From positions 1,171,328 through 1,235,327 of the forward strand of contig OZ245018.1 of NCBI GenBank assembly GCA_965223825.1: DNA of 64,000 nucleotides, read 5' to 3'. Made by a program: the position numbers and the translations under genes. Under the pieces are notes generated by a model. It had not been told where the DNA came from. It did no database searches and saw nothing but the letters and a program-made list of their open reading frames with translations. The stretch's first letter is position 1. Every line of letters starts with the position of its first letter. The DNA is from Gammaproteobacteria bacterium. Lineage in GTDB: Bacteria; Pseudomonadota; Gammaproteobacteria; CAJXQU01. Of this stretch, positions 14,743-30,399 are shown one piece after another.

Positions 14743-17700
14743 TTATGGTGCAATTCCAGTCAAGCTAATGAGCTTTTCTTTTTCCGTTAGTAGGCGCTTG
14801 GTTAAGATCACTTGCATACTATCGACGGCGCGGGCTTGTGGAAGAATGCGATCAGATGATATGCCGTCTTGTTGCATTTTTACACCGAGTGGGCTGAGTC
14901 TGAAATCAAGGTTGGTTAAATCAAAACGTGCCTCGGTCCATTTCATTGATTCAAACCAATCGGTGTAATACAACCAGCTTCGCTCATTAAAGGCACGTAC
15001 AGTTGCAGGGTTTTGCCATGCGCCATAAGAAAGATCATAAGGTACGCTAATATGAAGTTCGCCTCCGACTTTCAGTAGGTTCAAACAGTTAGTCATTGCG
15101 CTGGAAAGATCCGTAATCTGCTCTAATATGTTGTTCGCAATAATTTTCTCAAATTGATTATTGCTAAAGTTAATTACGCCATATTGCGTACTGATGACTG
15201 TTCTACCAATCAGATCATGATCTGCCAGATCAACGATCGCATCCGTTTTACAATGCTTGTCAATATCAACATTGAGATAGGCTGGGTCGTAATGTTTCCC
15301 ATTACCGATGTTTAGCGTTGTAGGAAGTGTTGAAATATCCTGACGTTCACGAGTCGTTTTATTTGAAAACTCACTATTTAAGCTATTTATCGTTTGATCA
15401 TTATCATCTTCTTCAGTCTTTTGATTTTTTTCAGCAAGATCAGAAAATGCCTTATTCAGGTGCGCCGTGGCTAAGTGTTGCTGAATTATTTTAAATCCCT
15501 GCTCCTCCATTTGTACTCTTGCCGTATCGGATTCCACAAGGTCAAGGCATGTCTCTAGAATGTGATCATACGATACGGCTTTAATAGCAAGTTGATAATC
15601 ATCATTTAGTTCAGAGTTTTCCGTATATTCAGAGATGACAGCTTTTCTATTTCCTAAGAGGTAGGGGAGATCGATTAATTCAAAGTGATTATTATCATCA
15701 ACATGCATGTTGAGAACGACTTTTGATCGTGCAATGTGATCATTTCGTTCTTGCTCTTGCAGTTCATGAATTGACTCGACGTTGAGTCCCTTGTTGACTA
15801 ACGCATCGAGAATCGTGGAATGACGTGCATTCACATAGCCATAAAATAGTACGTCAATATCCTGTTGTTTTTGACTTTCAATATCAGATAAACACGTATG
15901 GTAACCGATAGGAACGTGAATGGCTTCGATACCTTTTTTTTGTAATGTCTGTATATTTTTTTGGCTATTGTCCCACACTGGGAAACGTTTGAATATTTCA
16001 AGCAGTGCGGGTTGCATAATGAAAGTTGAGTCAACAATTCTTTCTAGGTTGTAAAGAATACTGGTTTCTGGAATGTGTTGAAGATCTTCTTCCTTAAGTA
16101 AGTGGGCTCCGAGAATAATATTAATACCATCATCGATCATGGTATTAACCGTGAGTTGTGCATTAAAGCCGAGATCAGTAAAAGCATGTTGTAACAGCTT
16201 GGCAATTTCATCAAAACTTGAGGTCTTACGGCTATAAGCAGGACGAATGATGGTGACGTTAACGTTTAATGCAGCTTGCGCGTGATCTGAAATAGCGACG
16301 TCTTCGATTTGTGCGGTGTTTTCCATAGTGCTTTTCTCTGTTTGCGAGGTTTTCGCCTGTTTTCTGGGTACAACGATATGTTCCGGAGGGAGCGATTTCC
16401 GTTTGTTCTCTTGCATAATGATGAGTAACTGTTGAAAATTTTCTACGTATTGTTTTGTATTAAACAATGCGGAATTTTTACGATTGCCGATCAGTTTATT
16501 ACGTACCTTTTGATAATAATTAGGATCATTTGCCAGCTTTAGGGCCAGGTTTTGATAGCTCTCGATATTATCTGTAATGAGCTCATCCATACCCATTGCC
16601 TGTAATAAACTGCCTGCCACGCGAGATGCAAAACTATTGCCGCTGATAGTGATCAGTGGCAGGCCAATCCAGAGTGCATCACTGGCGGTGGTGTGCGCAT
16701 TACATGGAAAATTATCAAGAAAGAGATCTGCGTTTTGTGCGCGAGATAGATGCATGTCAACGGATTGATGTGGTGCAAAGATGATACGTTCAACATTAAT
16801 CCCGCGTTGCTCGGCTTCTTTATAAAGATTCTCAGTTGCCCATTCATTACTTTCAAATAACCAGAGCACACTGTTAGGTGTCTTATTCAATAAGTCCATC
16901 CAAATATGGAAAATATCGGGCGTGATTTTATAGCTTTGGTTGAAGCAACAAAAAACGAACGCATCTTCAGGTAAACCGCACTCTGATCGCGAAGGTCGAT
17001 GTTCATGCACAACGCGGTGACTGTCATTTACCTGATAGGTATCCGGCATATAGGCAATTTTTTCTGAATAAAAAGGCTGGTGATCATCAGGAATAATGAA
17101 TCGATCTGCGATGATGTAATCAATATGATCAGCCCCCATTGTCCCTGGATAACCCAGGTAATTGACCTGAATCGGAGCAGGGTGATGTGCGAGAATGCCA
17201 GGTCGACATTGTGCTGTATAACCCTTTAAATCGATCGCGATGTCTATGCCCAGTGCGGCAATAATCGTTGCGATCTCAGTATCATTTTTGTCCGTTACAT
17301 CATGAAAATATTTGATGGCTTGTTGAATTCGTTGCCGCATAAATGACTTTGGGTCACTTGTTCCAAAGGAAAAAACATGGATAGAAAAACGTTCTGAATC
17401 CATCAGCTCGAAAAGCTCGCCCATTAAGTAGGCGGTGGCATGGTTGTATAAATCTGCAGATAAAAAAGCAATTTTAATTGGTGCCCCTTCATTTGATGGA
17501 TCTTCCAACTTTTTTGCCTCGACATGGGCGACTAACCCGCTAATGTCTTGGGTCTCACTGGTGGTGACGGTGTTATAAATACGTGCTGTTTTTAAAAAAA
17601 ACTGCGGATCATCAACGATGTTAATGATGGAAAAGGGCGAGATTGCGGATGTTACATCGAGTTTTTCGTTAATATTTAATTGAGTGATCGCTTGATCAAT

Positions 17701-18354
17701 CTCGGATCGCATTTCCTCATAATCACGCCAGTCACACATTTTCATTTGCATATGACAATATTTACTGAGTGCTCCAACCATGCTGGGTTGTATCTCGGTA
17801 GCTGCCTTGAAATGGTGGCTTGCTTGATCAAACTTGTTTTGTGTTGTGAGTAAGTTGCCAAGGTTAAAATGCGCAACGTCTTTGTTTTGATAATCTCGAT
17901 CAATTGCTTCTTGGAAACAATGTATGGCGCCATCAATGTCGCCTTTTTTCATGAGAGCATTACCGAGAACAAAATTGACTTGTTGATGATTGGGCTGACG
18001 TTGTTGTACTTGGTGATAACAGGCGATGGCTTCATCAAGTGCATCATTGCCATGAACTTCTAGAGCGCAACCGAGTTTTAAATGTGCATCCACATAATCT
18101 GGATCGAGTTTAATGCCTTCACGCAATAAACTGATCGCAGCATCGTGTTGCTGCTGATTGATAAGAATGAGTGCGAGGTTGGTAAATACGAGGCCTTGTG
18201 TGCAACCATTTTTGATTAGATCGCTGTAGGCTTTCTGAGCTTGTTGAATATTCCCTTTAATATGCTGTTGAACAGCTGCCTCAATTCGCGATCGCATTCT
18301 TTTTGACTCTTTTTTGTGCTCTATAGTGGCGGCTGCGTCGATCATCGCATTCAT
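14743..18354 (-). CDS. TPR / O-GlcNAc transferase (GT41, SPINDLY-like) fused to a GT-B-like domain and a methyltransferase-like domain
   Basis: N-terminal TPRs; KIAFLSADLYNHAT, DLKGYT, APIQVNYLGYPGTMG, FNQSYKI, DLFLDNFPCNAHTTASDALWIGLP, FASRVAGSLL; then DVLFYG...RSKVVLN and LNIGNG...LNVDI...VPYDLSYGAW. Confidence 0.9.
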   Translation of the reverse strand: MNAMIDAAATIEHKKESKRMRSRIEAAVQQHIKGNIQQAQKAYSDLIKNGCTQGLVFTNLALILINQQQHDAAISLLREGIKLDPDYVDAHLKLGCALEVHGNDALDEAIACYHQVQQRQPNHQQVNFVLGNALMKKGDIDGAIHCFQEAIDRDYQNKDVAHFNLGNLLTTQNKFDQASHHFKAATEIQPSMVGALSKYCHMQMKMCDWRDYEEMRSEIDQAITQLNINEKLDVTSAISPFSIINIVDDPQFFLKTARIYNTVTTSETQDISGLVAHVEAKKLEDPSNEGAPIKIAFLSADLYNHATAYLMGELFELMDSERFSIHVFSFGTSDPKSFMRQRIQQAIKYFHDVTDKNDTEIATIIAALGIDIAIDLKGYTAQCRPGILAHHPAPIQVNYLGYPGTMGADHIDYIIADRFIIPDDHQPFYSEKIAYMPDTYQVNDSHRVVHEHRPSRSECGLPEDAFVFCCFNQSYKITPDIFHIWMDLLNKTPNSVLWLFESNEWATENLYKEAEQRGINVERIIFAPHQSVDMHLSRAQNADLFLDNFPCNAHTTASDALWIGLPLITISGNSFASRVAGSLLQAMGMDELITDNIESYQNLALKLANDPNYYQKVRNKLIGNRKNSALFNTKQYVENFQQLLIIMQENKRKSLPPEHIVVPRKQAKTSQTEKSTMENTAQIEDVAISDHAQAALNVNVTIIRPAYSRKTSSFDEIAKLLQHAFTDLGFNAQLTVNTMIDDGINIILGAHLLKEEDLQHIPETSILYNLERIVDSTFIMQPALLEIFKRFPVWDNSQKNIQTLQKKGIEAIHVPIGYHTCLSDIESQKQQDIDVLFYGYVNARHSTILDALVNKGLNVESIHELQEQERNDHIARSKVVLNMHVDDNNHFELIDLPYLLGNRKAVISEYTENSELNDDYQLAIKAVSYDHILETCLDLVESDTARVQMEEQGFKIIQQHLATAHLNKAFSDLAEKNQKTEEDDNDQTINSLNSEFSNKTTRERQDISTLPTTLNIGNGKHYDPAYLNVDIDKHCKTDAIVDLADHDLIGRTVISTQYGVINFSNNQFEKIIANNILEQITDLSSAMTNCLNLLKVGGELHISVPYDLSYGAWQNPATVRAFNERSWLYYTDWFESMKWTEARFDLTNLDFRLSPLGVKMQQDGISSDRILPQARAVDSMQVILTKRLLTEKEKLISLTGIAP

Positions 18355-18398: not shown

Positions 18399-18413
18399 GC
18401 ATGATATGTGCCA
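18399..18413 (-). promoter_or_regulatory. sigma54 promoter for the GT41 gene
   Basis: Minus strand reads TGGCACATATCATGC = GG-N10-GC, about 45 nt upstream of the start codon. Confidence 0.7.
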
Positions 18414-18487
18414 TTGAAAGTTTGCATTTTTGTTACGTAATCAAAAAAGTTTAAAGGTTTTTTCAGGTCGGTCGCTGTAATCCCTGA

Positions 18488-18586
18488 CGCAGTCCAGAAA
18501 GGATGCGGTAACAACTGTAGAAACGGTAAAACAACTATCGGACAAGAATTGTCTGGTATGTCCAACCTAGAAAAGGAGAAAGGACT
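18488..18586 (+). promoter_or_regulatory. Structured 5' leader of flagellin 1 with repeated AGAA-loop hairpins
   Basis: Four hairpins with AGAA loops at 18496, 18519, 18545 and 18569; the 3' part is shared with the flagellin 2 leader. Confidence 0.55.
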
Positions 18587-19405
18587 ATGGCGATAACGAA
18601 CATCTCGCTCACAGCAGGTATGCGTTCAAATTTATTGAGCCTGCAACAAACAGATTCATTACTCACACGAACTCAAGAACGTCTTGCTACCGGCAAAAAG
18701 GTAAATAGTGCGTTAGATAATGCACAGGCATTTTTTGCTGCCAGTGCAAACACGAATCGTGCTGAAAGCCTCGATTTACGTAAAGATGCGATGGGCCAAG
18801 CCATTCAAGTGGTTAAAGCAGCGGATGCAGGTATTACAGCGATCAACTCACTGCTCGATCAAGCTGTGGGTATAGTTGCGACAGCAAAAGGTAGTTTGGC
18901 GAACACGGCAGACGATGCGACATTAGCATCACAATATAACGAAATCATTAGCCAAATTAACGATATCGTTGATGACTCTGGTTATTCCGGTACGAACTTA
19001 CTTAAAGGTCTTGAATCACTGACCGTTGTCTTCAATGCTGCAGGTGATAACTCTCTCACAATAAGCGGTGTGTCTTCAGATACAACTACACTTGCTGTAA
19101 CGACGGCATTTGACGGTGCGACGGGCACAACTCTCGATACGATCACGACCGAAATTGCTGCTGCAAAAAGCACGTTACAATCGACATCGACATCTCTGTC
19201 TGGTTCGTTAGGCGTCATTAATGCGCGTCAAGAATTTACCGACTCGATGGTTAACGTATTGGAAACAGGGGCGGATAAACTTACTTTGGCTGACACGAAT
19301 GAGGAAGGCGCGAACATGCTTGCTCTGCAAACACGTCAGCAATTGGGTACGATATCGCTATCATTGGCGAACCAGTCTGCACAGGCGGTACTGCAGTTGT
19401 TCTAA
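18587..19405 (+). CDS. Flagellin 1 (short, 272 aa, alphaproteobacterial/FlbT-FlaF-associated type)
   Basis: RSNLLSLQQT...TQERLATGKKVNSALDN, SGYSGTNLL, LTLADTNEEGANMLALQTRQQLG, SLANQSAQAVLQLF. Confidence 0.95.
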   Translation: MAITNISLTAGMRSNLLSLQQTDSLLTRTQERLATGKKVNSALDNAQAFFAASANTNRAESLDLRKDAMGQAIQVVKAADAGITAINSLLDQAVGIVATAKGSLANTADDATLASQYNEIISQINDIVDDSGYSGTNLLKGLESLTVVFNAAGDNSLTISGVSSDTTTLAVTTAFDGATGTTLDTITTEIAAAKSTLQSTSTSLSGSLGVINARQEFTDSMVNVLETGADKLTLADTNEEGANMLALQTRQQLGTISLSLANQSAQAVLQLF

Positions 19406-19465
19406 TCATACGTTTAGAGCAATTTACAATTCGATTGGTTTTCTGCTTATCAGGCAACCAATCTC

Positions 19466-19496
19466 AAACGGGGCTTTCGGGCCCCGTTTTTATTTT
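19466..19496 (+). terminator. Rho-independent terminator after flagellin 1
   Basis: AAACGGGGCT-TTCG-GGCCCCGTTT followed by TTATTTT. Confidence 0.85.
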
Positions 19497-19565
19497 GAGC
19501 TGTCTTTATCATGGCGTGTTCTCGACACGTTTCTGACAAAACCCCTGCTTGCGTCAATATTCCGC

Positions 19566-19592
19566 TAAAGTTTTTAATCCGATTGCCGTTAC
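19566..19592 (+). promoter_or_regulatory. sigma28 (FliA) promoter of flagellin 2
   Basis: TAAA(19566-69)-N15-GCCGTTAC(19585-92), compared with consensus TAAA-N15-GCCGATAA. Confidence 0.7.
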
Positions 19593-19719
19593 CTTATTTC
19601 GACACATTCTCACTTTTTGAATGTGGGACGTTCCATGATGGAACGTGTTAAAGGAGTAAGACTATTTAAGCCCGACAAGAATTGTTAGGCAAAGCCAACC
19701 TAGAAAAGGAGAAAGGACT

Positions 19720-20535
19720 ATGGCAACAGGTATCTCAATCTCAGCAGGCATGCGTTCAAACTTATTGAGTCTGCAACAAACAGATTCATTATTGACACGT
19801 ACGCAAGAACGTCTGGCAACCGGTAAGAAAGTAAATAGCGCGTTGGATAATGCGCAATCCTTCTTTACTGCAGCAGCAAACAACTCTCGTGCAGAATCCT
19901 TAGCATCTCGTAAAGATGCGATGGGTCAAGCGATTCAGGTTGTTAAAGCAGCCGATGCTGGTATCTCAGCAATTAACTCATTGCTCGATCAGGCAGCTGG
20001 TATTGTTGCAACAGCGAAAGGTAGTTTGAGTGACACATCTGATGATGCTGCACTCGCAACGCAATATAATGAAATCATCTCACAAATCAACACAATCGTT
20101 GAAGATTCAGGTTACTCTGGTACGAATCTGTTAGACGGTGATGAGTCTCTGACGGTTTCATTTAACGCGGCTGGTGACAACACATTAACGATTAGTGGTG
20201 TATCTTCAGATTCGACTGCGTTAGCGGTGACAACGTCATTTGATGGCGCAACAGGCTCAACTCTGGATACGATCACGACTGAAATTGCAGCAGCTAAGTC
20301 TACTCTGCAATCAACATCAACGGCTCTATCTGGTTCACTTGGTGTAATCAATGCACGTCAGGAATTCACTGATGCGATGATCAATACCTTGCAAACTGGT
20401 GCTGATAAGTTGACGTTGGCAGATAGTAATGAAGAAGGCGCTAACATGCTTGCCCTGCAAACACGTCAGCAGCTGGGTACGATCTCATTAAGTTTGGCTA
20501 ACCAGTCAAACCAAGCAGTATTGAGATTGTTCTAG
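19720..20535 (+). CDS. Flagellin 2 (271 aa), paralog of flagellin 1
   Basis: Same conserved termini; about 85% identical to flagellin 1 by eye, with many synonymous differences. Confidence 0.95.
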   Translation: MATGISISAGMRSNLLSLQQTDSLLTRTQERLATGKKVNSALDNAQSFFTAAANNSRAESLASRKDAMGQAIQVVKAADAGISAINSLLDQAAGIVATAKGSLSDTSDDAALATQYNEIISQINTIVEDSGYSGTNLLDGDESLTVSFNAAGDNTLTISGVSSDSTALAVTTSFDGATGSTLDTITTEIAAAKSTLQSTSTALSGSLGVINARQEFTDAMINTLQTGADKLTLADSNEEGANMLALQTRQQLGTISLSLANQSNQAVLRLF

Positions 20536-20600
20536 AGATTAAAGTAAGTCCAGATTGAAAAGGCGATCAGGATGATCGCAGTACAATCTAAATATAGTGT

Positions 20601-20624
20601 GGGTGGGGGCTGATGTCCTCACCC
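20601..20624 (+). other. GC-rich hairpin without U tract between flagellin 2 and the next ORF
   Basis: GGGTGGGGGC-TGAT-GTCCTCACCC, just upstream of the GGAGG ribosome binding site. Confidence 0.45.
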
Positions 20625-20646
20625 TATCTCACGGAGGAGATACACT

Positions 20647-21441
20647 ATGAGTAACGTAACCGAAGGACTCTCGGTGGTTTCTTCAGTTAATCATCGGCAA
20701 GTCATATCTTCAACTGATCAGAAGCAAACACCCGCAACGGATGAGTTGGGTGGGCGGTCGAATCAGAATCCCGTTTTTCCTGACAAAATTTCCTTATCGA
20801 ATTTTGACATCAGTTATTCGACCATTCAACGTAGAAATGAGTCGACTAACCAAGTGGCAAGTACGATCCGCCAAGCGGATAAAGTGATGTCAGAAGTGGG
20901 CGAATTGATCAAAGAAAAACGTTTCGAAATTGGTCAATATGAAAAGCAATATCCGCCTTTACAGAGTGAAACTTCTGAAAAAGTGGAATTCTTGAATTCT
21001 TTATCATCTCTAAAAAAACAAATCGACGCTTTAACCACCTTGCCTGATCTGAAAGAGGTTGCACGCATCATTGGTGATCCAAGCAAAGAAAGTGGTTCGA
21101 TTGAAAATGAGTACGGTATCTCGCCAGTTAGACAACATGAGATCCATTCTGGCCCGAGTGGCCTAAATATTGCTTCGATCAACTCCGATGCAAATGACAG
21201 TGTAGTCCGACAGTTTGGACAAGATCTTGCAAGAGCAGAACATAAGCTAGAGCGGCGACAACAAGCCTTAGCGACAGATGCAAAACTGTTAGCAAATGAG
21301 TTAAGCATAGGTGAATCAATGGTCAAAACTGAAAAAGAAGCCGAATCAAAAAGCCAGGAAGTCAAGCAAGCCCTGATCGTGATGAATGATGGAGCAAACT
21401 TAATTGGCGAAGGTTCAAAACTACTGGAGAGTTTGAATTAA
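20647..21441 (+). CDS. Hypothetical coiled-coil protein, weakly flagellin-N-like
   Basis: GGAGG RBS; TAATG overlap with flbT; the segment NQVASTIRQADKVMSEVGELI resembles flagellin D1 helices. Confidence 0.75.
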   Translation: MSNVTEGLSVVSSVNHRQVISSTDQKQTPATDELGGRSNQNPVFPDKISLSNFDISYSTIQRRNESTNQVASTIRQADKVMSEVGELIKEKRFEIGQYEKQYPPLQSETSEKVEFLNSLSSLKKQIDALTTLPDLKEVARIIGDPSKESGSIENEYGISPVRQHEIHSGPSGLNIASINSDANDSVVRQFGQDLARAEHKLERRQQALATDAKLLANELSIGESMVKTEKEAESKSQEVKQALIVMNDGANLIGEGSKLLESLN

Positions 21442-21848
21442 TGCCCTTAAAAATTTCCTTAAAACCCCATGAAAAAATCTACATGGGCGGTGCGGTTCTA
21501 CAAAATGGTGGGACGGCAAGTGAGTTGAGTGTTCTCAATGAGGCCACGATCTTACGTGAAAAAGATATTTTGACGGATGAATCAGCAAACAGTCCTTGTC
21601 GACGGATCTACCTGACTATTCAACTCATGTATATGGAGCAAAAAAATCTGGCGCCTTTTCATGAAACATACTGGTCACAGGTTCGTGAGATCGTTGATGC
21701 AGCGCCCAGTTTCACTGAGTTGTTGAGACAAATTAGTGAAGAAATTTTAGATGAAAATTTTTACAAAGCTCTCAAGCTTACTAAGAAACTTATTGATAGA
21801 GAATCAGAGGTACTAAAGCATGCAACATTCTGCAGCGAAGGCGTATGA
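21441..21848 (+). CDS. flbT: Flagellin translational regulator FlbT
   Basis: MPLKISLKPHEKIYMGGAVLQNG, ILREKDIL, SPCRRIYLTIQLMY, YKALK..KKLIDRE. Confidence 0.9.
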   Translation: MPLKISLKPHEKIYMGGAVLQNGGTASELSVLNEATILREKDILTDESANSPCRRIYLTIQLMYMEQKNLAPFHETYWSQVREIVDAAPSFTELLRQISEEILDENFYKALKLTKKLIDRESEVLKHATFCSEGV

Positions 21849-22215
21849 CAGCATAAACAAAGCGGCGATGTCTCCACGTCAGCTGGAAGCCGCTATTTTA
21901 AATCGTGCCGCAGCGATGCTGAAATCAGTTCAGGAAAGTTGGGAACAGGCCGATCACGAAGAGCGATTGTTTAATGCACTTCGATATAACCAACGACTCT
22001 GGAGTGTCTTTCAGGCAGAGTTATCTTCTGATGAAAGTCTTTTACCGAAAAAGTTACGAGAAGATTTACTCTCGATCAGCTTATTTATCGATAAACGCAC
22101 ATTTGAATTGATGGCGATGCCTGAGCGCGAAAAAGTGACTTCGTTAGTTTCCATCAACCAAAATATTGCAGCTGGCTTGAATACCGTACCTGAAAAAGTC
22201 GCAGAGCCAGCATAG
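21820..22215 (+). CDS. flaF: Flagellin regulator FlaF
   Basis: AAKAY, SPRQLEA, ALRYNQRLWSVFQAEL, LPKKLREDLLSISLFIDKRT, LVSINQNIAAGL; overlaps flbT. Confidence 0.9.
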   Translation: MQHSAAKAYDSINKAAMSPRQLEAAILNRAAAMLKSVQESWEQADHEERLFNALRYNQRLWSVFQAELSSDESLLPKKLREDLLSISLFIDKRTFELMAMPEREKVTSLVSINQNIAAGLNTVPEKVAEPA

Positions 22216-22228
22216 CGATGATCATTAT

Positions 22229-22258
22229 CTTCACGGCCAAGAAAAATTGGCCGTGAAG
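22229..22258 (+). terminator. 12-bp hairpin after flaF
   Basis: CTTCACGGCCAA-gaaaaa-TTGGCCGTGAAG. Confidence 0.55.
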
Positions 22259-22534
22259 GTGTGTAATTTAAGAAAGTTATCATTAATTAACAATCCTTAT
22301 GTGAAGGATTGAAAACTCAGTACTCACTTCTCCTACAATCAGCAAAATTTGCACTATAATATTATAAAAATCAGCATGATATGTTGATCGCGTTATTGCA
22401 ATATAACGGTATTGTAGTCAGTCAAAGACCAATTTCAGATCAGTATAAACGTGCTCACACCAAATCGAAATAATCGATAGAAAAAAGGGCATTACGCATG
22501 GGGATAGTGCATTTAAGGGATCATAATTTAGTGG

Positions 22535-23110
22535 ATGAGGTGTATGTTACAGCCTGATCAAAAAGCGGGTTTAGCGATTACAGATCACTATCCGTTGAAG
22601 GTAGAACGCGTCACAGACGGGTTTTCTGATCGGCAAATTTACGACTTAACGTTGTCAGCAAAAGACGTTCTAAATGCGGTGATCACATTGGAACAAATGG
22701 CCGGTGAAAAACCTGACTCAAATGCAAAATCTGACGCTCCAGAACTTTATCGACTAGAACAAAAGCTTGATTTTGTTACAGAATTACTAACGAAGGTCAT
22801 TCAAGCCCAAGCGGGCGTACCAGTGAAGTCTGCGATCAGTTTAAGTGCATCCCAACTGGAATGGACGACAGATAAGCAATATTCTGTGGGAGAATTGTGC
22901 ACTGTTTCAATCCATTTAAGTGCGCGTTATCCGCTCCCGTTAACAGTCCCGTTAAGGCTAAAATTAAGCCAAAACCCAGGGTGCTGTATGGGAGAAATTC
23001 TTCTAAACGATCCGGAATTTTTTGATGATCTAACACGACTGATATTTTTAATTCATCGTCGTCAAATAGCACGAAACCGCATGTTGAAGTCGACGAATGC
23101 AAATGCATGA
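22535..23110 (+). CDS. Atypical (tetrameric-type) PilZ domain protein
   Basis: RLEQKLDFVTELL helix, ISLSASQLEW, and C-terminal LTRLIFLIHRRQIA. Confidence 0.65.
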   Translation: MRCMLQPDQKAGLAITDHYPLKVERVTDGFSDRQIYDLTLSAKDVLNAVITLEQMAGEKPDSNAKSDAPELYRLEQKLDFVTELLTKVIQAQAGVPVKSAISLSASQLEWTTDKQYSVGELCTVSIHLSARYPLPLTVPLRLKLSQNPGCCMGEILLNDPEFFDDLTRLIFLIHRRQIARNRMLKSTNANA

Positions 23111-23274
23111 CAGATTTTTGACCAAATAGTGTTTTAATGTTTTACTTTAACGCTATTAAGGGAGGGTATGATTTAATGAGTGAAAAAAAAGAATTAGTTC
23201 ACACTCATGTCTGCGTACACAACGTAATCCCTACGGACTTACATTCTTTATTCATATAAATAAGGACTTTAATT

Positions 23275-24699
23275 ATGGCCAATGGCAGTGTACTCATCAT
23301 AGAAGATAATGCCGAGCAACGATCTCAAATTAAGGCTGTGCTGGAGTACTTGGAGTATTCGCCAGTCATTGCTGTTGATCACCAAGGGTGGGAACCTCAT
23401 CTAGGCGGAAAAGATAACGCACAGATTTTACTGTTAGGTGGTTGCAGTGAAACACGCAATTTGATGGATGTGTTTAGACGGGTGAAAAAAACCGATCCTT
23501 ACTTACCCATCGTTCTACTTGTCGATAACGACAAAAACAAACCGAATTTTGAATTGGAAACGGGCATCATTGCGAAAGCCAATGTTCCACTTCGTCAAAA
23601 ACAACTGATTACGGTTCTTGAAAAGGTGAATACGTATCGTGAGAACAGGCACGAAGACGGCGCACCGCGATCCTTAGAATTGTTCCGATCACTTGTCGGT
23701 AGCAGTAAAGGGATTCAGCGTGTCAGACGCATGATCGAAATGGTCGCTTCTTCAGATGCCAATGTCTTGATTACCGGTGAGTCCGGATCAGGCAAAGAGG
23801 TAGTTGCTCGCCATATTCATTATCATTCAACACGTAAAAATAAACCTTTCGTGCCGATTAACTGCGGTGCAATTCCACCAGACTTACTTGAAAGCGAATT
23901 GTTCGGTCATGAGAAGGGCGCTTTCACCGGTGCGATCACTTCCCGTCAGGGACGTTTTGAAATCGCCGAAGGCGGCACGCTTTTCCTTGATGAAATTGGC
24001 GATATGAGTCACAGCATGCAAGTCAAACTTCTGCGTGTTTTACAAGAACGTATTTTTGAGCGTGTCGGCAGTAATAAACCGATCAAGGCGGATGTGCGCA
24101 TTATCGCTGCGACGCATGTGAATCTCGAAGAAGCCATTACAGAAGGGGAGTTTCGTGAAGATCTGTTCTACAGATTGAACGTTTTTCCAATCGAAACGCC
24201 TCCCTTACGCGATCGAATCGAAGATTTGCCATTGTTGATTAACGATCTCACTGAACGTTTGGAACATGAAGGTAACGGCAGTATTCATCTGACACCGGCA
24301 ACGATTCAATCGTTAAGTCAATATGGCTGGCCGGGTAACGTGCGTGAATTAGCGAATTTGATTGAACGATTGTCGATTCTTTATCCGAACGGATCAGTGA
24401 ATGTGGGCGATTTGCCTGAGAAGTATCAATCTGATGAATTGATCAGTGATGCAGATGGTGATGAAGCAAGCTTATTAGCACCACCAGATAATGGCATCAT
24501 GCCGCGTTTACCGCACGGTGGTATCGATTTGAAGGAGCACCTTACAACGCTGGAATACAGCATGATCAAACAGGCACTTGATGAGTCTAATTGGGTTGTT
24601 GCGCATGCTGCAAAGCGCTTACAACTGGGCCGAACCACGCTTGTTGAGAAGATGCGTAAATATAATTTGCAACGCCGCGATGAGGCGTCATCCGCTTGA
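23275..24699 (+). CDS. fleQ: sigma54-dependent flagellar master regulator FleQ/FlrA
   Basis: Degenerate REC domain; LFRSLVG, GESGSGKE, GAFTGA, WPGNVREL, and HTH RTTLVEKMRKY; upstream of fleSR. Confidence 0.93.
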   Translation: MANGSVLIIEDNAEQRSQIKAVLEYLEYSPVIAVDHQGWEPHLGGKDNAQILLLGGCSETRNLMDVFRRVKKTDPYLPIVLLVDNDKNKPNFELETGIIAKANVPLRQKQLITVLEKVNTYRENRHEDGAPRSLELFRSLVGSSKGIQRVRRMIEMVASSDANVLITGESGSGKEVVARHIHYHSTRKNKPFVPINCGAIPPDLLESELFGHEKGAFTGAITSRQGRFEIAEGGTLFLDEIGDMSHSMQVKLLRVLQERIFERVGSNKPIKADVRIIAATHVNLEEAITEGEFREDLFYRLNVFPIETPPLRDRIEDLPLLINDLTERLEHEGNGSIHLTPATIQSLSQYGWPGNVRELANLIERLSILYPNGSVNVGDLPEKYQSDELISDADGDEASLLAPPDNGIMPRLPHGGIDLKEHLTTLEYSMIKQALDESNWVVAHAAKRLQLGRTTLVEKMRKYNLQRRDEASSA

Positions 24700-24763
24700 C
24701 ATTAAACTGAGTGAAAAATCATCTCATTCGGCCAAGTCATTGTTCCTCTTGTAGTTAATTATT

Positions 24764-24778
24764 TGGCATAGTCCTTGC
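24764..24778 (+). promoter_or_regulatory. sigma54 promoter of fleSR
   Basis: TGGCATAGTCCTTGC, GG-N10-GC; it lies only about 12 nt before the listed ATG, so the real start may be a downstream Met. Confidence 0.8.
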
Positions 24779-24790
24779 TCATTCTGATAC

Positions 24791-25936
24791 ATGAATCAGA
24801 GTGAGCAAATGACATTGACCAAGCCATCATCAGAAAGCCTGACTTTCCGTGATCTAAGTGATCAGTCTGTCTTATGCCCAGTAAGCACGACTGAGGTTGT
24901 GTCTTCAACCATTGACGCACGTCAACGTGATCAGCAACTTCGACGTTTAACGAATTTATTGAACGGCTTACCCGGTGCGGTTGTCATGCTCGACGGCGCA
25001 GGTCGAGTGCAGCAATGTAATCCAGCGGCAATCGATTTATTAGGTGCGCCATTACTATCTGAGCGTTGGGGGGATGTCGTGAACCGAGCGTTTGCACCTC
25101 GCTGGGATGATGGTCACGATATTTCATTAGTCAGTGGTCGCATGGTTAACATTTCTACTCAAGCGATGATTGATGAGCCGGGTCAGATTTTACTCATCAA
25201 AGATGTTACAGAAACGCGCCAATTACAAACGCAACTGAATCAAGCGAAACGACTCTCCGCAAAAGGGGAAATGGCCGCCGCCTTAGCACACCAGATTAGA
25301 ACGCCTCTTGCTTCGGCAATGTTGTATTTATCTAATTTACAAAACCATCCGTTGGATGATGCTGCGCGTATTAAATTCACTGGAAAAGCCCTATCCAGAT
25401 TGAATCATTTGGAAAAGCTGATCGAAGACATGCTACTTTTTGCACGTGGTGGTCAGTTCGAACTTGAGCCGGTTTCACTGCAAAAACTACTTAATGATTT
25501 ACAACAACAAGTTGCCCCTCACGCTGAACAAGCCGGTTTTACATTTTCCATTCGCTCCCCAATTTTAGATTGTCCGATCCCTGCGAATGCGGCGGCGTTG
25601 TTGAGTGCACTGCAAAACCTAGTTGATAACGCGATTCAAGCGATCGGAAAAGGCGGTGAATTACGACTCGAAACAGACAAAATTAATGATCGAATGGTAC
25701 GAATTTCGCTTATTGATAATGGCCCCGGTATTCCGGATCAAGTTCGCGAACGCTTGTTTGAACCGTTCGTGACAAGCCGGGCAAATGGGACGGGACTGGG
25801 CTTAGCTGTTGTCCAAGCCGTTATTCGGTCACATCAGGGCTCTATTCAACTGCGAGAAACATCCAGCGCTGGTACACGATTTGAAATTACCTTGCCATTG
25901 ATTGGGCAGAAACAAGAAGGAGCGGTGTCACTATGA
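24791..25936 (+). CDS. fleS: PAS sensor histidine kinase FleS/FlrB
   Basis: AFAPRWDDGHDISL, LAHQIRTPL (H box), DNGPG, GTGLGL. Confidence 0.92.
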   Translation: MNQSEQMTLTKPSSESLTFRDLSDQSVLCPVSTTEVVSSTIDARQRDQQLRRLTNLLNGLPGAVVMLDGAGRVQQCNPAAIDLLGAPLLSERWGDVVNRAFAPRWDDGHDISLVSGRMVNISTQAMIDEPGQILLIKDVTETRQLQTQLNQAKRLSAKGEMAAALAHQIRTPLASAMLYLSNLQNHPLDDAARIKFTGKALSRLNHLEKLIEDMLLFARGGQFELEPVSLQKLLNDLQQQVAPHAEQAGFTFSIRSPILDCPIPANAAALLSALQNLVDNAIQAIGKGGELRLETDKINDRMVRISLIDNGPGIPDQVRERLFEPFVTSRANGTGLGLAVVQAVIRSHQGSIQLRETSSAGTRFEITLPLIGQKQEGAVSL

Positions 25937-27273
25937 AACCTGTTGTACTCATTGTCGAAGATGATCTGGATCTGCGTGAAGCGCTAGTGGATACGCTCGA
26001 GCTGAGTGGCTATGCGACGTTGGCAGCAGAAAATGGGCGCGTGGCGTTACAAATCATTGATGAATCACATATCGATCTGGTGGTGAGTGATGTGCAAATG
26101 GACGAAATGGACGGCCACACCTTACTGAAAAATATTAAATCACGCCGAACTGATTTACCCGTGTTATTGATGACAGCATACGGCACGATTCAAAATGCGA
26201 TCAAAGCGATTCAGGATGGGGCGGTGGATTATCTGGTTAAGCCCTTTGAATCGACTGTTCTCGTTAGCAAAGTTGCGCAGATTATGCCGCAAGCTTTGGC
26301 ATCAGAAGATGGTGTTATTGCGACTGATCCGGTTTTCAAAAAAGTCCTTGATATGGCGCGTCGTGTTGGCCCTAGTGATGCCACTGTGCTGATCACCGGC
26401 GAAAGCGGCACTGGGAAGGAAGTGTTGTTCCGGTATTTACATAATCATTCTGATCGACGTGATAAAGACCCTGTTGCGATCAACTGCGCGGCGATTCCTG
26501 ACAACATGCTTGAAGCGATCTTATTCGGTTATGAAAAAGGTGCTTTCACTGGGGCATATAAAGCAAGCCCCGGTAAGTTTGAACAAGCAGAAGGTAGCAC
26601 CATTTTACTAGATGAAATTTCTGAAATGGATTTGAGTTTACAGGCGAAGCTATTACGCGTGTTACAAGAAAAACAAGTTGAACGTTTAGGCAGCAGCCAG
26701 GTGATTGATCTTGATGTGCGGGTGATCGCAACGTCCAACCGTGACATGCGTGAAGAAGTAAAAGCCGGTCGTTTTAGAGAAGATTTATTCTATCGACTGA
26801 ATGTTTTCCCGATCAAAATGCCAGCCTTGCGTGAACGCTCAGAAGATATTGTGCCACTCGCTGAATACTTACTCAGTCGTGCAGCTAAATCAGAGCAGGG
26901 CATGACGATTGAGCTAACGGAAGTGGCGTGCGAAAAACTGCAAAGACACCCTTGGCCGGGAAATGTACGTGAGTTGGATAACGTTATGCAACGTGCGCTG
27001 ATTCTTTCAAATGGTGGTCAGATTTCCGCCGAAGAGTTGATCATGGAGGAGCTTGATCCAGCATTCGCAGAGCGCCTTATGACAACAGGTAATACCGCTG
27101 ATCTAAACCTTGGGGAAAAGGTAAAAGATCAAGAATATCAAATCATACTTGACGCATTAGAAGAAGGTGACGGAAGTCGAAAATATGCTGCTGAAAAACT
27201 CGGCATCAGTCCACGCACGTTACGGTACAAAATCGCAAAAATGCGCGAAAACGGGATTACCATCCCGGCGTAA
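25933..27273 (+). CDS. fleR: sigma54 response regulator FleR/FlrC
   Basis: REC domain (VEDD, SDVQM), GESGTGKE, GAFTGA, LGISPRTLRYK. Confidence 0.93.
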   Translation: MKPVVLIVEDDLDLREALVDTLELSGYATLAAENGRVALQIIDESHIDLVVSDVQMDEMDGHTLLKNIKSRRTDLPVLLMTAYGTIQNAIKAIQDGAVDYLVKPFESTVLVSKVAQIMPQALASEDGVIATDPVFKKVLDMARRVGPSDATVLITGESGTGKEVLFRYLHNHSDRRDKDPVAINCAAIPDNMLEAILFGYEKGAFTGAYKASPGKFEQAEGSTILLDEISEMDLSLQAKLLRVLQEKQVERLGSSQVIDLDVRVIATSNRDMREEVKAGRFREDLFYRLNVFPIKMPALRERSEDIVPLAEYLLSRAAKSEQGMTIELTEVACEKLQRHPWPGNVRELDNVMQRALILSNGGQISAEELIMEELDPAFAERLMTTGNTADLNLGEKVKDQEYQIILDALEEGDGSRKYAAEKLGISPRTLRYKIAKMRENGITIPA

Positions 27274-27297
27274 GTTGGGTGAGATGAGGGAAAAAGC

Positions 27298-27618
27298 ATG
27301 ACGGACATAGCGATTCAATCTGTATTAGCGCAAATGCGTGCGATGCAAGCGCGCGCCACTGGTGGCGTGAGTGCACCGACGCCAGCGCAAGGTGTGAACG
27401 GTGAATTCGCGACGGCAATGAAATCCGCTGTTGATCATGTCAACGCGACTCAACAAGCGGCGGCAGAAAAAACCAAAGCATTCGAAATGGGTAAAGATGT
27501 CGATCTCGGTGATGTGATGGTGAGTTTGCAAAAATCCAATATTGAATTTCAGGCGACCGTACAAGTAAGAAACAAAATGGTCGAGGCGTATCAACAAATC
27601 ATGAACATGCCGATTTAG
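27298..27618 (+). CDS. fliE: Flagellar hook-basal body protein FliE
   Basis: QVRNKMVEAYQQIMNMPI C-terminus. Confidence 0.95.
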   Translation: MTDIAIQSVLAQMRAMQARATGGVSAPTPAQGVNGEFATAMKSAVDHVNATQQAAAEKTKAFEMGKDVDLGDVMVSLQKSNIEFQATVQVRNKMVEAYQQIMNMPI

Positions 27619-27661
27619 GCAGAAACGTGATCAGATGCATAACAAGCGGTAAAGGACACAC

Positions 27662-29347
27662 ATGGCTGAGAATGAAGTAGCGGTTGCGAACAATCCAAAT
27701 CTGATGGGGCAGGTGGTTTCACCGCAAAATCAGACGGCGCAGGTATTGCGTCAGGCAGGATTGTTGATCGGGATTGCAGCGAGTGTGGCACTGGGTGTTG
27801 CGGTTGTTATGTGGTCACAAACACCAAATTTTAGCCTGCTTTACGGCAACTTATCTGATCGGGATGTGAGCTCCGTGATGGATGCGTTGCAGAGTGCATC
27901 AATTGAATACAAAGTCGACGAAGCATCTGGTGGCATTTTGGTCCCAACTGCAAAATTGCATGAAGCACGTATCAAACTTGCAGCCTCCGGATTACCGAAA
28001 AGTAGCAGCATGGGGTTTGAGATGTTGCAGGAAGAGCAAAGCTTCGGAACCAGTCAGTTTATTGAGCAAGCGCGTTATCAGCGGGCGTTAGAAGCTGAGT
28101 TATCACGATCGATTTCCAAAGTAGCAAATGTCCGTAGCGCACGTGTGCATCTCGCATTACCGAAAGCGTCAGTGTTTGCACGTGATCGACAAAATCCGAG
28201 TGCGTCAGTATTGGTTGATCTGTACCCAGGCCGTCGGCTTGAAGAAGGCCAGATCGCAGCGATTGCACACATGGTGGCTGCGAGTGTTCCCAATTTGATG
28301 ATCTCTGGCGTCACTGTTGTTGATCAGGCGGGTCGCTTATTGAGTCGTGCGGGTGAAGCGAATGAATTAACGGTTAGCGCAGAACGCTTTGAATACAGCA
28401 AACGAATCGAAGATTCTTATATCAAACGTATCGAAAATATTCTGCATCCCATCGTCGGAATGGATTATGTCCGTGCGCAAGTGACGGCCGATATCGATTT
28501 TACCGCGACTGAACAAACCAGCGAAATTTACAATCCTGATCTGCCCGCGGTACGTAGCGAACAATTATCTGAAGAACAACGAACCGGCGGTGGTGCAGCG
28601 ATTGGTGTGCCTGGCGCATTAACCAACCAACCACCGGGAACGGCGACAGTGCCTGAAGAAGCGGAAGGTGAGGGTGAAGCCGGTGCTGGCACAGCGAATG
28701 AACAGCAACAATTGCGTAAAAAAGAAACGCGTAATTTTGAACTGGATAAAACCATCAGTCATACGCGCAAAGCCGTCGGAACAATTGAGCGTTTATCTGT
28801 CGCTGTGGTTTTGAACAACCCGATTATTACCGATGATGCCGGTGTTGCAACTCAGCAAGATTATACGCCAGAACAGATCGTTGAATTTACACAGCTGGTA
28901 AAAGATGCCGTCGGCTTCAATGCGGTTCGCGGCGACGCTGTCAGCGTGATCGCAACCAACTTCACAACCGCGGCACCAGCAGAACCATTACCCGAATTAG
29001 CGATATGGGAACAAGCCTGGGTGTGGGATGTTGGTAAGCAAGTATTGGGTGGAATTTTTGTCCTTTACTTACTCTTCGGCGTCTTACGCCCGACGATCAA
29101 AAACATGATGAAAAAACCTGAACCTGTCACGCAACAAGTCGTCATGGTTGGCCCAGACGGAAAACCATTACCGCCTGGCGGTAGTGGTGGTGAACAGGCG
29201 AATGCAGAAGCTGAAAATGTACCATTGCTCGAGCTCGGTGCGTCAACCAGTTACGAAACCAGCTTGAATTCCGTGCGTGATTTCGTAAAAGAGGAACCTA
29301 AGTTAGCTGCGCAAGTTGCGAAAAACTGGGTCGCAACGGACTCTTAA
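27662..29347 (+). CDS. fliF: MS-ring protein FliF
   Basis: GFEML, FGTSQF, RALEAELSRSI, ARVHLALP, GVPGALTNQPP, VGFNAVRGD. Confidence 0.96.
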   Translation: MAENEVAVANNPNLMGQVVSPQNQTAQVLRQAGLLIGIAASVALGVAVVMWSQTPNFSLLYGNLSDRDVSSVMDALQSASIEYKVDEASGGILVPTAKLHEARIKLAASGLPKSSSMGFEMLQEEQSFGTSQFIEQARYQRALEAELSRSISKVANVRSARVHLALPKASVFARDRQNPSASVLVDLYPGRRLEEGQIAAIAHMVAASVPNLMISGVTVVDQAGRLLSRAGEANELTVSAERFEYSKRIEDSYIKRIENILHPIVGMDYVRAQVTADIDFTATEQTSEIYNPDLPAVRSEQLSEEQRTGGGAAIGVPGALTNQPPGTATVPEEAEGEGEAGAGTANEQQQLRKKETRNFELDKTISHTRKAVGTIERLSVAVVLNNPIITDDAGVATQQDYTPEQIVEFTQLVKDAVGFNAVRGDAVSVIATNFTTAAPAEPLPELAIWEQAWVWDVGKQVLGGIFVLYLLFGVLRPTIKNMMKKPEPVTQQVVMVGPDGKPLPPGGSGGEQANAEAENVPLLELGASTSYETSLNSVRDFVKEEPKLAAQVAKNWVATDS

Positions 29348-29375
29348 TTGATTAAGGACGATCAGGACAATAAGC

Positions 29376-30389
29376 ATGGCTGATTCAGGAAAACATACCG
29401 GCGCAGAAAAAGTTGCGGTGCTATTAATGGCGCTCGGCGAAGAGGTCGCTGCGGATATTCTCAGCCACATGGGGCCGAAAGAAGTTCAGCAGGTCGGCGT
29501 GTCGATGGCATCGATGGAAAGCGTGTCGAAAGAAATCGTTGAATCCACGTTAAAAGAATTTATTGGTGCATTACAGAAAGAAACGGGTCTTGGTGTCGGC
29601 GCAGATGATTATGTACGAAATGTCTTAGTCAGCGCGTTAGGCGAAGAAAAAGCCGGTGGCATGATCGATCGTATTTTACTCGGCGGTAACACCAAAGGTT
29701 TGGAATCATTGAAATGGATGGACGCGCGTTCTGTGGCGGAGTTAATCCGCAATGAACATCCGCAAATTATTGCTGTTGTGCTTTCTTATCTCGACAGTGA
29801 TCAATCTGCGCAAATCATCACACAACTTCCAGCGAATACACGTCACGACATCATGATGCGGATTGCTTCTGTGGATGGTGTTCAGCCATCAGCTATGGCG
29901 GAATTGAATGAAATTCTGGAATCGCAATTAAAAGGGACCAACAACGTTAAGTCCTCGGCTGGTTTCGGTGGGGTTAAGTCTGCAGCGAATATCTTGAACT
30001 TTATTGATGGGACGAACAGCAGCTCCATTATGGAAAAAATCAAAGAAATGGACGAAGACCTTGGTGATCAAATTGAAGATCTTATGTTTGTCTTTGCCGA
30101 TCTGGTGGAAATTGATGATCGTGGAATTCAAACCATGTTGCGTGAATTACAAACGGATGTGCTGGTGCTAGCTTTAAAAGGCGCAGAGCCGGAATTACAA
30201 GAAAAAATATTTACAAATATGTCCTCGCGTGCTGCCGATATGTTGAAAGATGATCTGGAGAGTAAAGGTCCAGTAAAAGTGAGTGAAGTCGATGAAGCAC
30301 AAAAAGAAATTCTCGTGATCGCACGTCGACTCGCAGAAGAGGGTCAGATTTCACTTGGCGCCAGTGCTGGCGGCGAAGAAATGATTTAA
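29376..30389 (+). CDS. fliG: Flagellar motor switch protein FliG
   Basis: EHPQIIA, GGVKSAA, MFVF, NMSSRAA, GPVKVSEV. Confidence 0.97.
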   Translation: MADSGKHTGAEKVAVLLMALGEEVAADILSHMGPKEVQQVGVSMASMESVSKEIVESTLKEFIGALQKETGLGVGADDYVRNVLVSALGEEKAGGMIDRILLGGNTKGLESLKWMDARSVAELIRNEHPQIIAVVLSYLDSDQSAQIITQLPANTRHDIMMRIASVDGVQPSAMAELNEILESQLKGTNNVKSSAGFGGVKSAANILNFIDGTNSSSIMEKIKEMDEDLGDQIEDLMFVFADLVEIDDRGIQTMLRELQTDVLVLALKGAEPELQEKIFTNMSSRAADMLKDDLESKGPVKVSEVDEAQKEILVIARRLAEEGQISLGASAGGEEMI

Positions 30390-30399
30390 GGCTGATCAG

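Follow-up and report, generated by a model that had tools for sequence, protein, structure and literature searches.

How did a polar flagellar locus of the Pseudomonas/Vibrio type come to hold, where its usual filament genes would be expected, two short flagellins together with FlbT and FlaF, a pair of proteins that has been studied best in the Alphaproteobacteria? The question is raised by a stretch of 64,000 nucleotides, here called the window, from a Gammaproteobacteria bacterium of the lineage CAJXQU01 (assembly GCA_965223825.1, contig OZ245018.1, positions 1,171,328-1,235,327). Gene calls made in the window from Pfam and NCBIfam profile scans give the order flgJ-flgK-flgL, a glycan island, a reverse-strand gene for a protein with tetratricopeptide repeats (TPR) and a family 41 glycosyltransferase domain (TPR-GT41), two flagellin genes, a gene that we call X, flbT, flaF, tPilZ, fleQ, fleS, fleR and fliE through fliJ. 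An initial annotation had proposed that the whole filament module was exchanged for one of alphaproteobacterial type while the basal body and FleQ/FleSR stayed native. We agree as to the exchange and differ as to the type: it appears likely that an FlbT/FlaF cassette that is not of the alphaproteobacterial lineage replaced the filament segment in situ, within a native FleQ/FleSR locus.

Gene order and trees around the filament slot

The view that the filament module was exchanged around a native basal body and FleQ/FleSR rests on collinear flanks, on FliF and flagellin trees that are incongruent with one another, and on two approximately unbiased (AU) tests. The annotated loci of the three nearest relatives (G024, G037 and G038) run FlgJ-FlgK-FlgL-FliC-FlaG-FliD-FliS(-FliT)-tPilZ-FleQ-FleS-FleR-FliE-FliF, with FliC proteins of 496-600 amino acids and with the FliS positions in G024 and G038 taken from the genome profile search. 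The slot that the initial annotation had ascribed to fliC-flaG-fliD-fliS(-fliT) in loci of this kind is occupied by those very genes, between the same flanks, in these three members of the class. None of the three loci holds a counterpart of X, FlbT or FlaF, and the window flagellins, which at 271-272 amino acids are roughly half as long as the relatives' FliC, match it over only ~135 N-terminal residues with 24-28% identity. The flanking genes are collinear with those of the relatives (Table 1), and the downstream proteins are 43-54% (FliE), 48-50% (FliF) and 57-59% (FliG) identical to their counterparts in the class, with FleQ, FleR, FliF and FliG all lying between 48 and 59%; FleQ has its three expected domains (PF06490, 44.1 bits; PF00158, 253.9 bits; PF02954, 48.2 bits). 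FlgL scores 131-221 bits against class relatives and 53-71 bits, in partial matches, against Hydrogenophilales-type genomes; because it is nearer to the class relatives we take it to be native, and the idea that it was transferred along with the cassette was dropped. As in the polar regulons of Pseudomonas, Vibrio and Legionella, which the locus also resembles in the gene order of its flanks, a second locus of the genome encodes FliPQR-FlhB-FlhA-FlhF-FleN-FliA-CheYZAB-MotAB, and a third encodes FlgA-FlgM-FlgN-YcgR. The remainder of the flagellar regulon is of gamma type; it is in the replacement of the fliC-flaG-fliD-fliS(-fliT) block, and in a FlaG that is orphaned elsewhere, that this genome departs from that group.

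By identity, the FliF of the genus is closest to class relatives that lack FlbT (50-51%), followed by Hydrogenophilales-type carriers of FlbT (43-46%) and by deltaproteobacterial and Nitrospirota carriers (31-38%). In the FliF tree (48 sequences, 536 columns, with the deltaproteobacterial and Nitrospirota sequences as outgroup; all support values given here are from the Shimodaira-Hasegawa-like approximate likelihood ratio test, SH-aLRT), the genus is nested among class relatives (98), beside G038 and G021 (96), and four Hydrogenophilales-type sequences form a separate group (99). The flagellin tree (79 sequences, 276 columns, rooted on four FlgL) holds at most one open reading frame per deltaproteobacterial or Nitrospirota locus and leaves out frames of fewer than 230 amino acids, deltaproteobacterial and Nitrospirota frames of more than 420, and deltaproteobacterial sequences beyond 22. 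There the relatives' FliC proteins (99) stand outside a clade of all FlbT-linked flagellins (96), and the genus falls in a subclade of the latter (98, branch 1.29) together with deltaproteobacterial, Nitrospirota and Hydrogenophilales-type sequences, whose internal order is without support. A single clade of the genus flagellins and the relatives' FliC is rejected by the AU test at a cost of 72.9 log-likelihood units (p 0.000246), and so is a single clade of the genus FliF and the Hydrogenophilales-type FliF, at a cost of 75.3 units (p 3.65e-05; 27 sequences under LG+G4, after identical rows, 11 extra deltaproteobacterial rows and 4 of 10 deltaproteobacterial/Nitrospirota rows had been dropped). 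The incongruence with FliF that the initial annotation had proposed to look for in the trees of flagellin and the cassette is borne out, in that both of the congruent topologies are rejected. If the exchange took place as we suppose, the ancestor of the genus would have lost fliC-flaG-fliD-fliS(-fliT) from between flgL and tPilZ-fleQ of a Pseudomonas/Vibrio-type polar locus and would have gained horizontally a segment with one or more short flagellins, X, FlbT and FlaF, probably along with the TPR glycosyltransferase and the glycan genes.

These trees also bear on an alternative in which nothing was exchanged, i.e., vertical descent with differential loss, the cassette having been present in a common ancestor with the Hydrogenophilales (which belong to the same GTDB class) and the genus being a relict. 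The cassette trees do place the genus as sister to lineages of its own class (G726, G788 and Hydrogenophilales metagenome-assembled genomes, MAGs) and not to another phylum, and the genus, which stands alone in its family and for which the next relatives on offer are from the same class only, may branch deep. Against such a history are the nesting of FliF among relatives that bear FliD and FliS, the rejection of a joint FliF clade with the Hydrogenophilales type, and the occupation of exactly the same slot in the relatives by FliC-FlaG-FliD-FliS. FlbT, furthermore, was found in three of 400 scored genomes of an even sample of the class, all three of this genus, and in none of the 397 others, which span 239 other families; and, as the clade of FlbT-linked flagellins crosses phyla, a transfer is required somewhere in any case. 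Taken together, these observations make vertical descent improbable.

The exchange, which we continue to favor, appears to be old within the genus, since the divergence of the cassette proteins between species (59-69% identity, 38-46% for X) is comparable with that of native FleS (64-65%) and FliF (71-72%).

The genome consists of one contig of 3,327,960 bases that is 99.01% complete with a guanine plus cytosine (GC) content of 0.455, and profile searches covered all of it except positions 640001-648000 (8,000 bases read as N). They returned no matches to FliD_N, FliD_C, FliS or FliW, and the only matches to Flagellin_N were FlgL and the two cassette flagellins; FlgM, FlgN, FliA, CsrA and FlaG were found elsewhere in the genome. 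FlbT is present in all seven genomes of the genus, and the six others likewise have neither FliD_C nor FliS. The absence of FliD and FliS that had been claimed for the window thus extends through the searched genome and the genus. FlbT is missing from all 13 of the class relatives that bear FliF, and FliD and FliS occur together in 12 of them. The exception is G021, which shares with G038 the place of closest class relative by FliF; its fliF is in two pieces, it lacks FliD, FliS and FlbT, and its flagellar system may be decaying. The same exclusion holds outside the Alphaproteobacteria, because among 21 FlbT-bearing genomes from there FliD_C was found in one and FliS above the cut-off in three. 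The sole FliD carrier of the 21, a Tepidiphilus MAG (G047), has a FlbT/FlaF cassette plus a FliD-FliS pair on another contig, and this double set may mean that there are two filament systems, that the state is intermediate or that binning was mixed. The orphan flaG (genome positions 1452057-1452329, 36 bits) is distant from every other flagellar gene and may be all that survives of the fliC-flaG-fliD-fliS block that was replaced, or part of the cassette.

It might be argued from the same absences that the cassette does not build a working filament, either because the flagellum no longer works or is a vestige, or because a diverged cap and chaperone went undetected and FlbT and FlaF are merely regulatory. 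The 8,000 masked bases could hold a cap or chaperone, a very diverged FliD can escape searches with hidden Markov models (HMMs), and flagellar decay does occur nearby, judging from the apparently split fliF and the lack of either filament module in G021. We nevertheless find this explanation very unlikely. Every flagellar gene examined is an intact open frame, the genome offers no flagellin-family genes other than FlgL and the cassette pair, and the cassette has been kept in seven of seven species, with promoter-like and leader elements conserved across the three that were compared. FliD and FliS are also missing from the six other genomes of the genus, FliD from 20 and FliS from 18 of the 21 other FlbT-bearing genomes, and FliD_N, FliD_C and FliS from Caulobacter, a swimmer, in the control panel of the profile search.

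Affinities of the FlbT/FlaF cassette

FlbT matches Pfam PF07378 over its whole length and falls below both of the NCBIfam equivalog cut-offs for the family (NF009432, 117.2 versus 153 bits; NF001995, 105.1 versus 125), which fits a divergent branch outside the alphaproteobacterial one; FlaF scores 120.8 bits against NCBIfam NF009435 (cut-off 91). Both domains of both flagellins pass the Pfam cut-offs (26.6 bits for Flagellin_N and 23 for Flagellin_C), the two proteins are 87% identical, and the motif SNLLSLQ...LATGKKVNSALDN that had been read from flagellin 1 in the initial annotation is indeed there. The solved structures nearest to a window flagellin are the Caulobacter FljK/L/M/N filaments, which align over the full length at just 72 bits.

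When FlbT was compared with species-representative genomes, the 80 best-matching named loci were 46-64% identical and came from two MAGs of the genus itself with the label "Gammaproteobacteria bacterium", Nitrospirota/Thermodesulfovibrionales, Geobacter/Geotalea, Desulfobacterales, Syntrophales, Hydrogenophilales (Tepidiphilus and Hydrogenophilus) and a few broad labels; none of these 80 carries an alphaproteobacterial label. FlbT occurs in 77 of 401 genomes sampled from the phylum, i.e., our own, two of the same class (G726 and G788) and 74 of other classes. These other-class sequences are taken as alphaproteobacterial in type (hereafter alpha-type) on the anchor of one family among them, in which the flagellin of G774 scores 322 bits against Caulobacter FljL. 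In the FlbT tree (122 sequences), 30 of the 33 other-class sequences fall outside the cluster to which the genus belongs, and the genus (99) joins Hydrogenophilales-type sequences with a support of 91. A concatenated tree of flagellin, FlbT and FlaF, made from the 75 loci with all three and reduced to 48 sequences and 533 columns by removing 5 duplicates and thinning the deltaproteobacterial loci to 18, separates alpha-type from non-alpha sequences with a support of 100 on both sides and again unites the genus with the Hydrogenophilales-type sequences (91). As judged from these comparisons, the cassette belongs to a non-alpha FlbT/FlaF lineage that is found in the Hydrogenophilales, the Desulfobacterota (Geobacter, Desulfobacterales and Syntrophales) and the Nitrospirota. 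The non-alpha cassette type is a grouping defined in this analysis, comprising a short flagellin, X with its YPPFP core, FlbT and FlaF and lacking FliD and FliS, and the window locus shares its gene order, its clade and its lack of FliD/FliS.

The alphaproteobacterial type given in the initial annotation is accordingly not upheld, and an alphaproteobacterial donor whose cassette functions just as it does in Caulobacter or the rhizobia, for which one might cite the history of work on FlbT and FlaF, the 74 of 77 FlbT-positive phylum-sample genomes from other classes and the Caulobacter structures, is made most improbable by the split (100) between the Caulobacter-anchored and genus clades, the labels of the best 80 loci, the sub-cut-off FlbT scores, the occurrence of the X core in none of 62 alpha-type FlbT genomes versus five of five from the same class, and the 72 bits between the window flagellin and FljK as compared to 322 for a true alpha-type flagellin.

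Several points weigh against replacement by a non-alpha cassette as we have set it out. Each of the trees comes from a quick IQ-TREE search, supported by SH-aLRT values only and without bootstraps, and the group constrained in the FliF test was chosen after the trees had been seen. Only one family of the other-class sequences is anchored to Caulobacter, and three of the 33 in the FlbT tree fall inside the non-alpha cluster. The sister link to the Hydrogenophilales-type cassette appears moderately supported (91) and indicates no single donor; the transfer may also have run in the opposite direction, from the genus. The X core is lacking in five of 13 genomes with FlbT of the deltaproteobacterial, Nitrospirota or Hydrogenophilales type, so not every cassette of this type has it. 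The masked 8,000 bases limit the reach of the genome searches for FliD and FliS.

X, a candidate divergent flagellin

X was not part of the initial finding and is named here as an additional component of the cassette. No Pfam or NCBIfam family was assigned to it in the profile scans. One pass of phmmer from X returned 41 open reading frames, spread over 39 of the 80 loci and almost all terminating at the start of flbT, and the core of the family alignment reads I(V)K.YPPFP..S.ER...L..F..LR.QID.LT.PP. An iterated HMM search drifted into true flagellins, which made it unusable for counts and gave the first hint of a flagellin origin; the counts of X given next rest on an alignment and profile of the core only (A4). 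A search of 1.84 billion representatives with this profile gave 596 clusters at E <= 0.001, most of which are 200-285 amino acids long, the core lying at residues 60-135. At the level of whole genomes, five of five same-class FlbT genomes contain the core, as do eight of the 13 deltaproteobacterial, Nitrospirota and Hydrogenophilales-type ones (one of them weakly); it has no occurrence in the 62 alpha-type FlbT genomes that were searched of 74, and an X profile gave nothing convincing in 33 alpha-type loci. Some Nitrospirota and deltaproteobacterial cassettes have in the position of X a shorter frame (~158 amino acids, e.g., L019:9505-9981) that shows neither the YPPFP core nor a Pfam match.

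Judged by profile and structure comparisons, X is a divergent flagellin paralogue, i.e., a member of a flagellin-derived family for which there is no family model. When the X family was aligned with the short flagellins by hhalign, the match ran end to end over 245 columns (probability 97.95%, E 3.1e-13). Four of 27 family members match Flagellin_N and one Flagellin_C, and no other relevant family is matched by any of them. The AlphaFold2 model of X (mean predicted local distance difference test score, 73.6) has residues 1-50 disordered and long helices thereafter, and a Foldseek search of the PDB with it ranks flagellins and FlgL at the top, the best being Caulobacter FljK (E 0.01). Two results count on the other side: Foldseek gave no PDB match at E <= 0.001, and BLASTP of the window X against its own flagellin 1 gave no similarity (E 2.3).

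Its homology to the flagellins, its translational coupling to flbT and a disordered N-terminus of the kind seen in export substrates lead us to propose X as the exported partner of FlbT in flagellin repression, a role to which we give slightly less than an even chance. A role as the cap or nucleator that replaces FliD is conceivable and, in our estimation, rather unlikely. A complex prediction from FlbT and X alignments scored 0.00 (mark 0.32) and counts neither way.

Signals, mechanism and wider meaning

The features of the locus are collected in Table 1. A pattern scan for sigma-28 promoters found 41 sites genome-wide, among them the one before flagellin 2; a similar site (TAAAGCTT-N11-GCCGCTAG) lies 187 nucleotides upstream of the FlgM match, as would be familiar from the Pseudomonas/Vibrio/Legionella-type regulon, and another sigma-28-like site (genome position 1451896) lies 161 nucleotides upstream of the orphan FlaG match. 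In three species of the genus, an element of the form TAAAG(G/T)TT ... CCG(A/C)TAC aligns upstream of the flagellin genes. Downstream of it the sequence diverges until the leader, in which an inverted repeat (GACAAGAATTGTC) followed by CCAACCTAGAAAAGGAGAAAGGACTATG forms invariant columns in six leaders from the three species. We infer that this conserved leader is the target of FlbT; the analogy is drawn from Caulobacter work that is reportedly that of Anderson and Gober in 2000. No terminator-like site was found on the forward strand between flagellin 2 and X, which, together with the terminator after flagellin 1 and the hairpin after flaF, suggests a flagellin 2-X-flbT-flaF transcript.

Table 1. 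Features of the flagellar locus, in coordinates of the window
Feature	Position	Strand	Description
flgJ	80-1180	+	Pfam; 38-50% identity to G024/G037/G038, collinear
flgK	1259-2893	+	Pfam; 38-41% identity to G024/G037/G038, collinear
flgL	2897-4054	+	Pfam; 32-36% identity to G024/G037/G038, collinear
Glycan island	4251-14301		radical-SAM/SPASM, AMP-binding, pyruvyl transferase, two GT2, FkbM methyltransferase, NTP transferase (Pfam)
TPR-GT41	14743-18354	-	1203 amino acids; Glyco_transf_41 307.9 bits; TPR at ~residues 58-191; weak C-terminal methyltransferase match
Sigma-54-like site	18399-18413	-	TGGCACATATCATGC; 45 nucleotides upstream of TPR-GT41 gene; 1 mismatch
Sigma-28-like promoter	18452-18481	+	TAAAGGTT ... 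CGCTGTAA; upstream of flagellin 1
Flagellin 1 5' untranslated region	18539-18589	+	inverted repeat CGGACAAGAATTGTCTG, then CCAACCTAGAAAAGGAGAAAGGACTATG
Flagellin 1	18587-19405	+	272 amino acids, short D0-D1; Flagellin_N 50 bits, Flagellin_C 24.8 bits
Intrinsic terminator after flagellin 1	19466-19497	+	10-pair stem, 6 GC pairs, then TTATTTT
Sigma-28-type promoter	19566-19592	+	TAAAGTTT-N11-GCCGTTAC; upstream of flagellin 2; genome pattern scan
Flagellin 2	19720-20535	+	271 amino acids; Flagellin_N 53.7 bits, Flagellin_C 23.6 bits
X	20647-21441	+	264 amino acids; stop overlaps flbT start (TAATG); core motif K.YPP(F/L)...S.E(R/K)
flbT	21441-21848	+	135 amino acids; PF07378 139.8 bits (cut-off 27), profile positions 1-125 of 125
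flaF	21820-22215	+	131 amino acids; PF07309 114 bits (cut-off 23.6); 29-nucleotide overlap with flbT
Terminator-like hairpin after flaF	22226-22261	+	15 pairs, 7 GC; poor T tail
tPilZ	22535-23110	+	28-29% identity to class relatives
fleQ	23275-24699	+	FleQ domain, sigma-54 AAA+, HTH_8; 54-59% identity to class relatives
Sigma-54-like site	24764-24778	+	upstream of fleS
fleS	24791-25936	+	44-49% identity to class relatives
fleR	25933-27273	+	55-58% identity to class relatives
fliE, fliF, fliG, fliH, fliI, fliJ	27298-32841	+	Pfam/NCBIfam; native downstream flank 22535-33609

The hybrid sigma-54/sigma-28/FlbT circuit that the initial annotation had proposed may exist, on the basis of promoter-like motifs and gene content. 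The sigma-54-like sites before TPR-GT41 and fleS are suggestive by their position alone. Set against such a circuit, the window has no excess of sigma-54-like sites (44 versus 54.5 expected from shuffles), and the sigma-28-like site of flagellin 1 is a weak match, weaker than that of flagellin 2. Should the site before TPR-GT41 be real, production of the glycosyltransferase would precede that of the sigma-28-dependent flagellins, in an echo of the timing of Caulobacter FlmG (available text of PMC7591256).

The TPR-GT41 protein is a candidate flagellin glycosyltransferase, with a predicted architecture like that of FlmG, in which flagellin is bound by an N-terminal TPR domain and the C-terminal part is a GT-B glycosyltransferase (available text of PMC7591256 and 10.1101/2023.12.03.569772). 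Homologues that score up to 468 bits stand beside FlbT cassettes in deltaproteobacterial and Nitrospirota loci, and the class relative G040 has a match of 228 bits in its flagellin locus as well; in view of the latter, the gene was dropped as proof of co-transfer with the cassette. The glycan island is, by its position only, a candidate source of the flagellin glycan. Its ~10 kb have a GC content of 0.31-0.38, as compared to 0.455 for the genome and ~0.43-0.44 for the filament cassette, and this low value points to a separate and possibly more recent acquisition.

A sequence of events can be proposed in which FleQ, and then FleS/FleR with sigma-54, would build the native basal body and hook, after which FliA (sigma-28), freed from FlgM, would transcribe the flagellins and probably read through into X-flbT-flaF. 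FlaF would replace FliS as the export chaperone of flagellin, and FlbT with a flagellin-like partner, proposed to be X, would hold the flagellin mRNA untranslated by way of the conserved 5' leader until export of the partner through the completed hook lifted the block. The TPR-GT41 enzyme would glycosylate flagellin ahead of export, and the filament would grow without FliD upon the native FlgK/FlgL junction, with X as a further candidate for cap or nucleator. The steps from FliA onward, taken alone, seem to us about evenly poised between right and wrong. They are modeled on Caulobacter, where, in the available text of PMC7591256, FlaF is a flagellin secretion chaperone, FlbT and the regulatory flagellin FljJ form a translational co-repressor that is relieved by secretion, and FlmG is the TPR-plus-glycosyltransferase enzyme that glycosylates flagellin; FlaY is given as the FliD analogue in a table of PMC13277936 and in the available text of 10.1101/2024.09.25.614892.

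The likeness to the Caulobacter crescentus module extends to FlbT and FlaF genes that adjoin short (~270 amino acids) D0-D1 flagellins, the lack of FliD and FliS, a TPR plus GT-B glycosyltransferase nearby, an extra flagellin paralogue that probably does not serve as a bulk subunit, and a conserved flagellin mRNA leader. The differences are the deep split between the two lineages, the sub-cut-off FlbT, the translational coupling to flbT of an X with the YPPFP..S.ER core, and upstream control, which is by FleQ/FleSR/FliA/FlgM here and by CtrA/FlbD there. Transfer of flagellar genes between proteobacterial classes has a precedent in Fla1 of Rhodobacter sphaeroides, a system of gammaproteobacterial origin within an alphaproteobacterium (available text of PMC7277832). 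Unlike Fla1, which was reportedly acquired whole and coexists with a native system, the transfer proposed here concerns the filament segment only, inside a native locus. With the CsrA-FliW checkpoint of Bacillus and Campylobacter, of which FlaF/FlbT has been called a possible analogue (available text of PMC4894983), the module would share post-transcriptional control of flagellin that is tied to export; unlike in that checkpoint, FliW is absent here, CsrA is unlinked to the locus and the proteins are unrelated.

Two neighbors of the locus may be recorded. Directly after fliJ, in the place usual for fliK in such loci, there is a TfpX/TfpZ-family type IV pilin accessory gene (32857-33609; NCBIfam 251 bits, cut-off 200). 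Farther on, a large polyketide-type gene cluster (37907-63998) encodes a 2416-amino-acid protein with ketosynthase-dehydratase-ketoreductase-acyl carrier protein-ketosynthase domains, a 1267-amino-acid acyl carrier protein-hydrolase-aminotransferase, a 1014-amino-acid ketosynthase, a stand-alone acyltransferase, two flavin monooxygenases, an AMP-ligase, a thioesterase, a phosphopantetheinyl transferase and two fatty-acid desaturases.

Genes for FlbT and FlaF outside the Alphaproteobacteria are already annotated in public records. Within the literature searched, no treatment of a non-alpha FlbT/FlaF was found; alongside Geobacter, FlbT occurs in a reference list only, and in the texts consulted that also name the Gammaproteobacteria it refers to Caulobacter. 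In a 2026 preprint on ancestral flagella, FlaF-FlbT is listed only as a co-presence pair and the available text does not mention Desulfobacterota or Nitrospirota; its supplements may bear on the distribution. What is new is a distinct, cross-phylum type of FlbT/FlaF module with an undescribed flagellin-derived component, seen here as an in-place replacement. Tentatively, and with more doubt than confidence, we suggest that a short flagellin, X, FlbT and FlaF, perhaps with the TPR glycosyltransferase, could make up a portable filament kit without FliD and FliS that mounts on an unrelated native hook junction and has moved among the Nitrospirota, the Desulfobacterota, the Hydrogenophilales and this genus, X being its key part as an exported partner of FlbT that senses hook completion or as a cap or nucleator.

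For annotation, the presence of FlbT and FlaF does not equate to "alphaproteobacterial", and missing FliD and FliS do not equate to an incomplete flagellum. The combination of FlbT/FlaF with the lack of FliD/FliS, which the searched literature treats as alphaproteobacterial, reaches at least three other major lineages by way of a distinct sister type, and X offers a concrete candidate for the question of the cap, i.e., of how a filament grows without FliD outside Caulobacter. The locus also speaks to the modularity of flagella, in that the filament end appears to be swappable as a unit. Foreign flagellins must here polymerise on native FlgK and FlgL and pass a native export gate, which makes of the swap a natural compatibility experiment.

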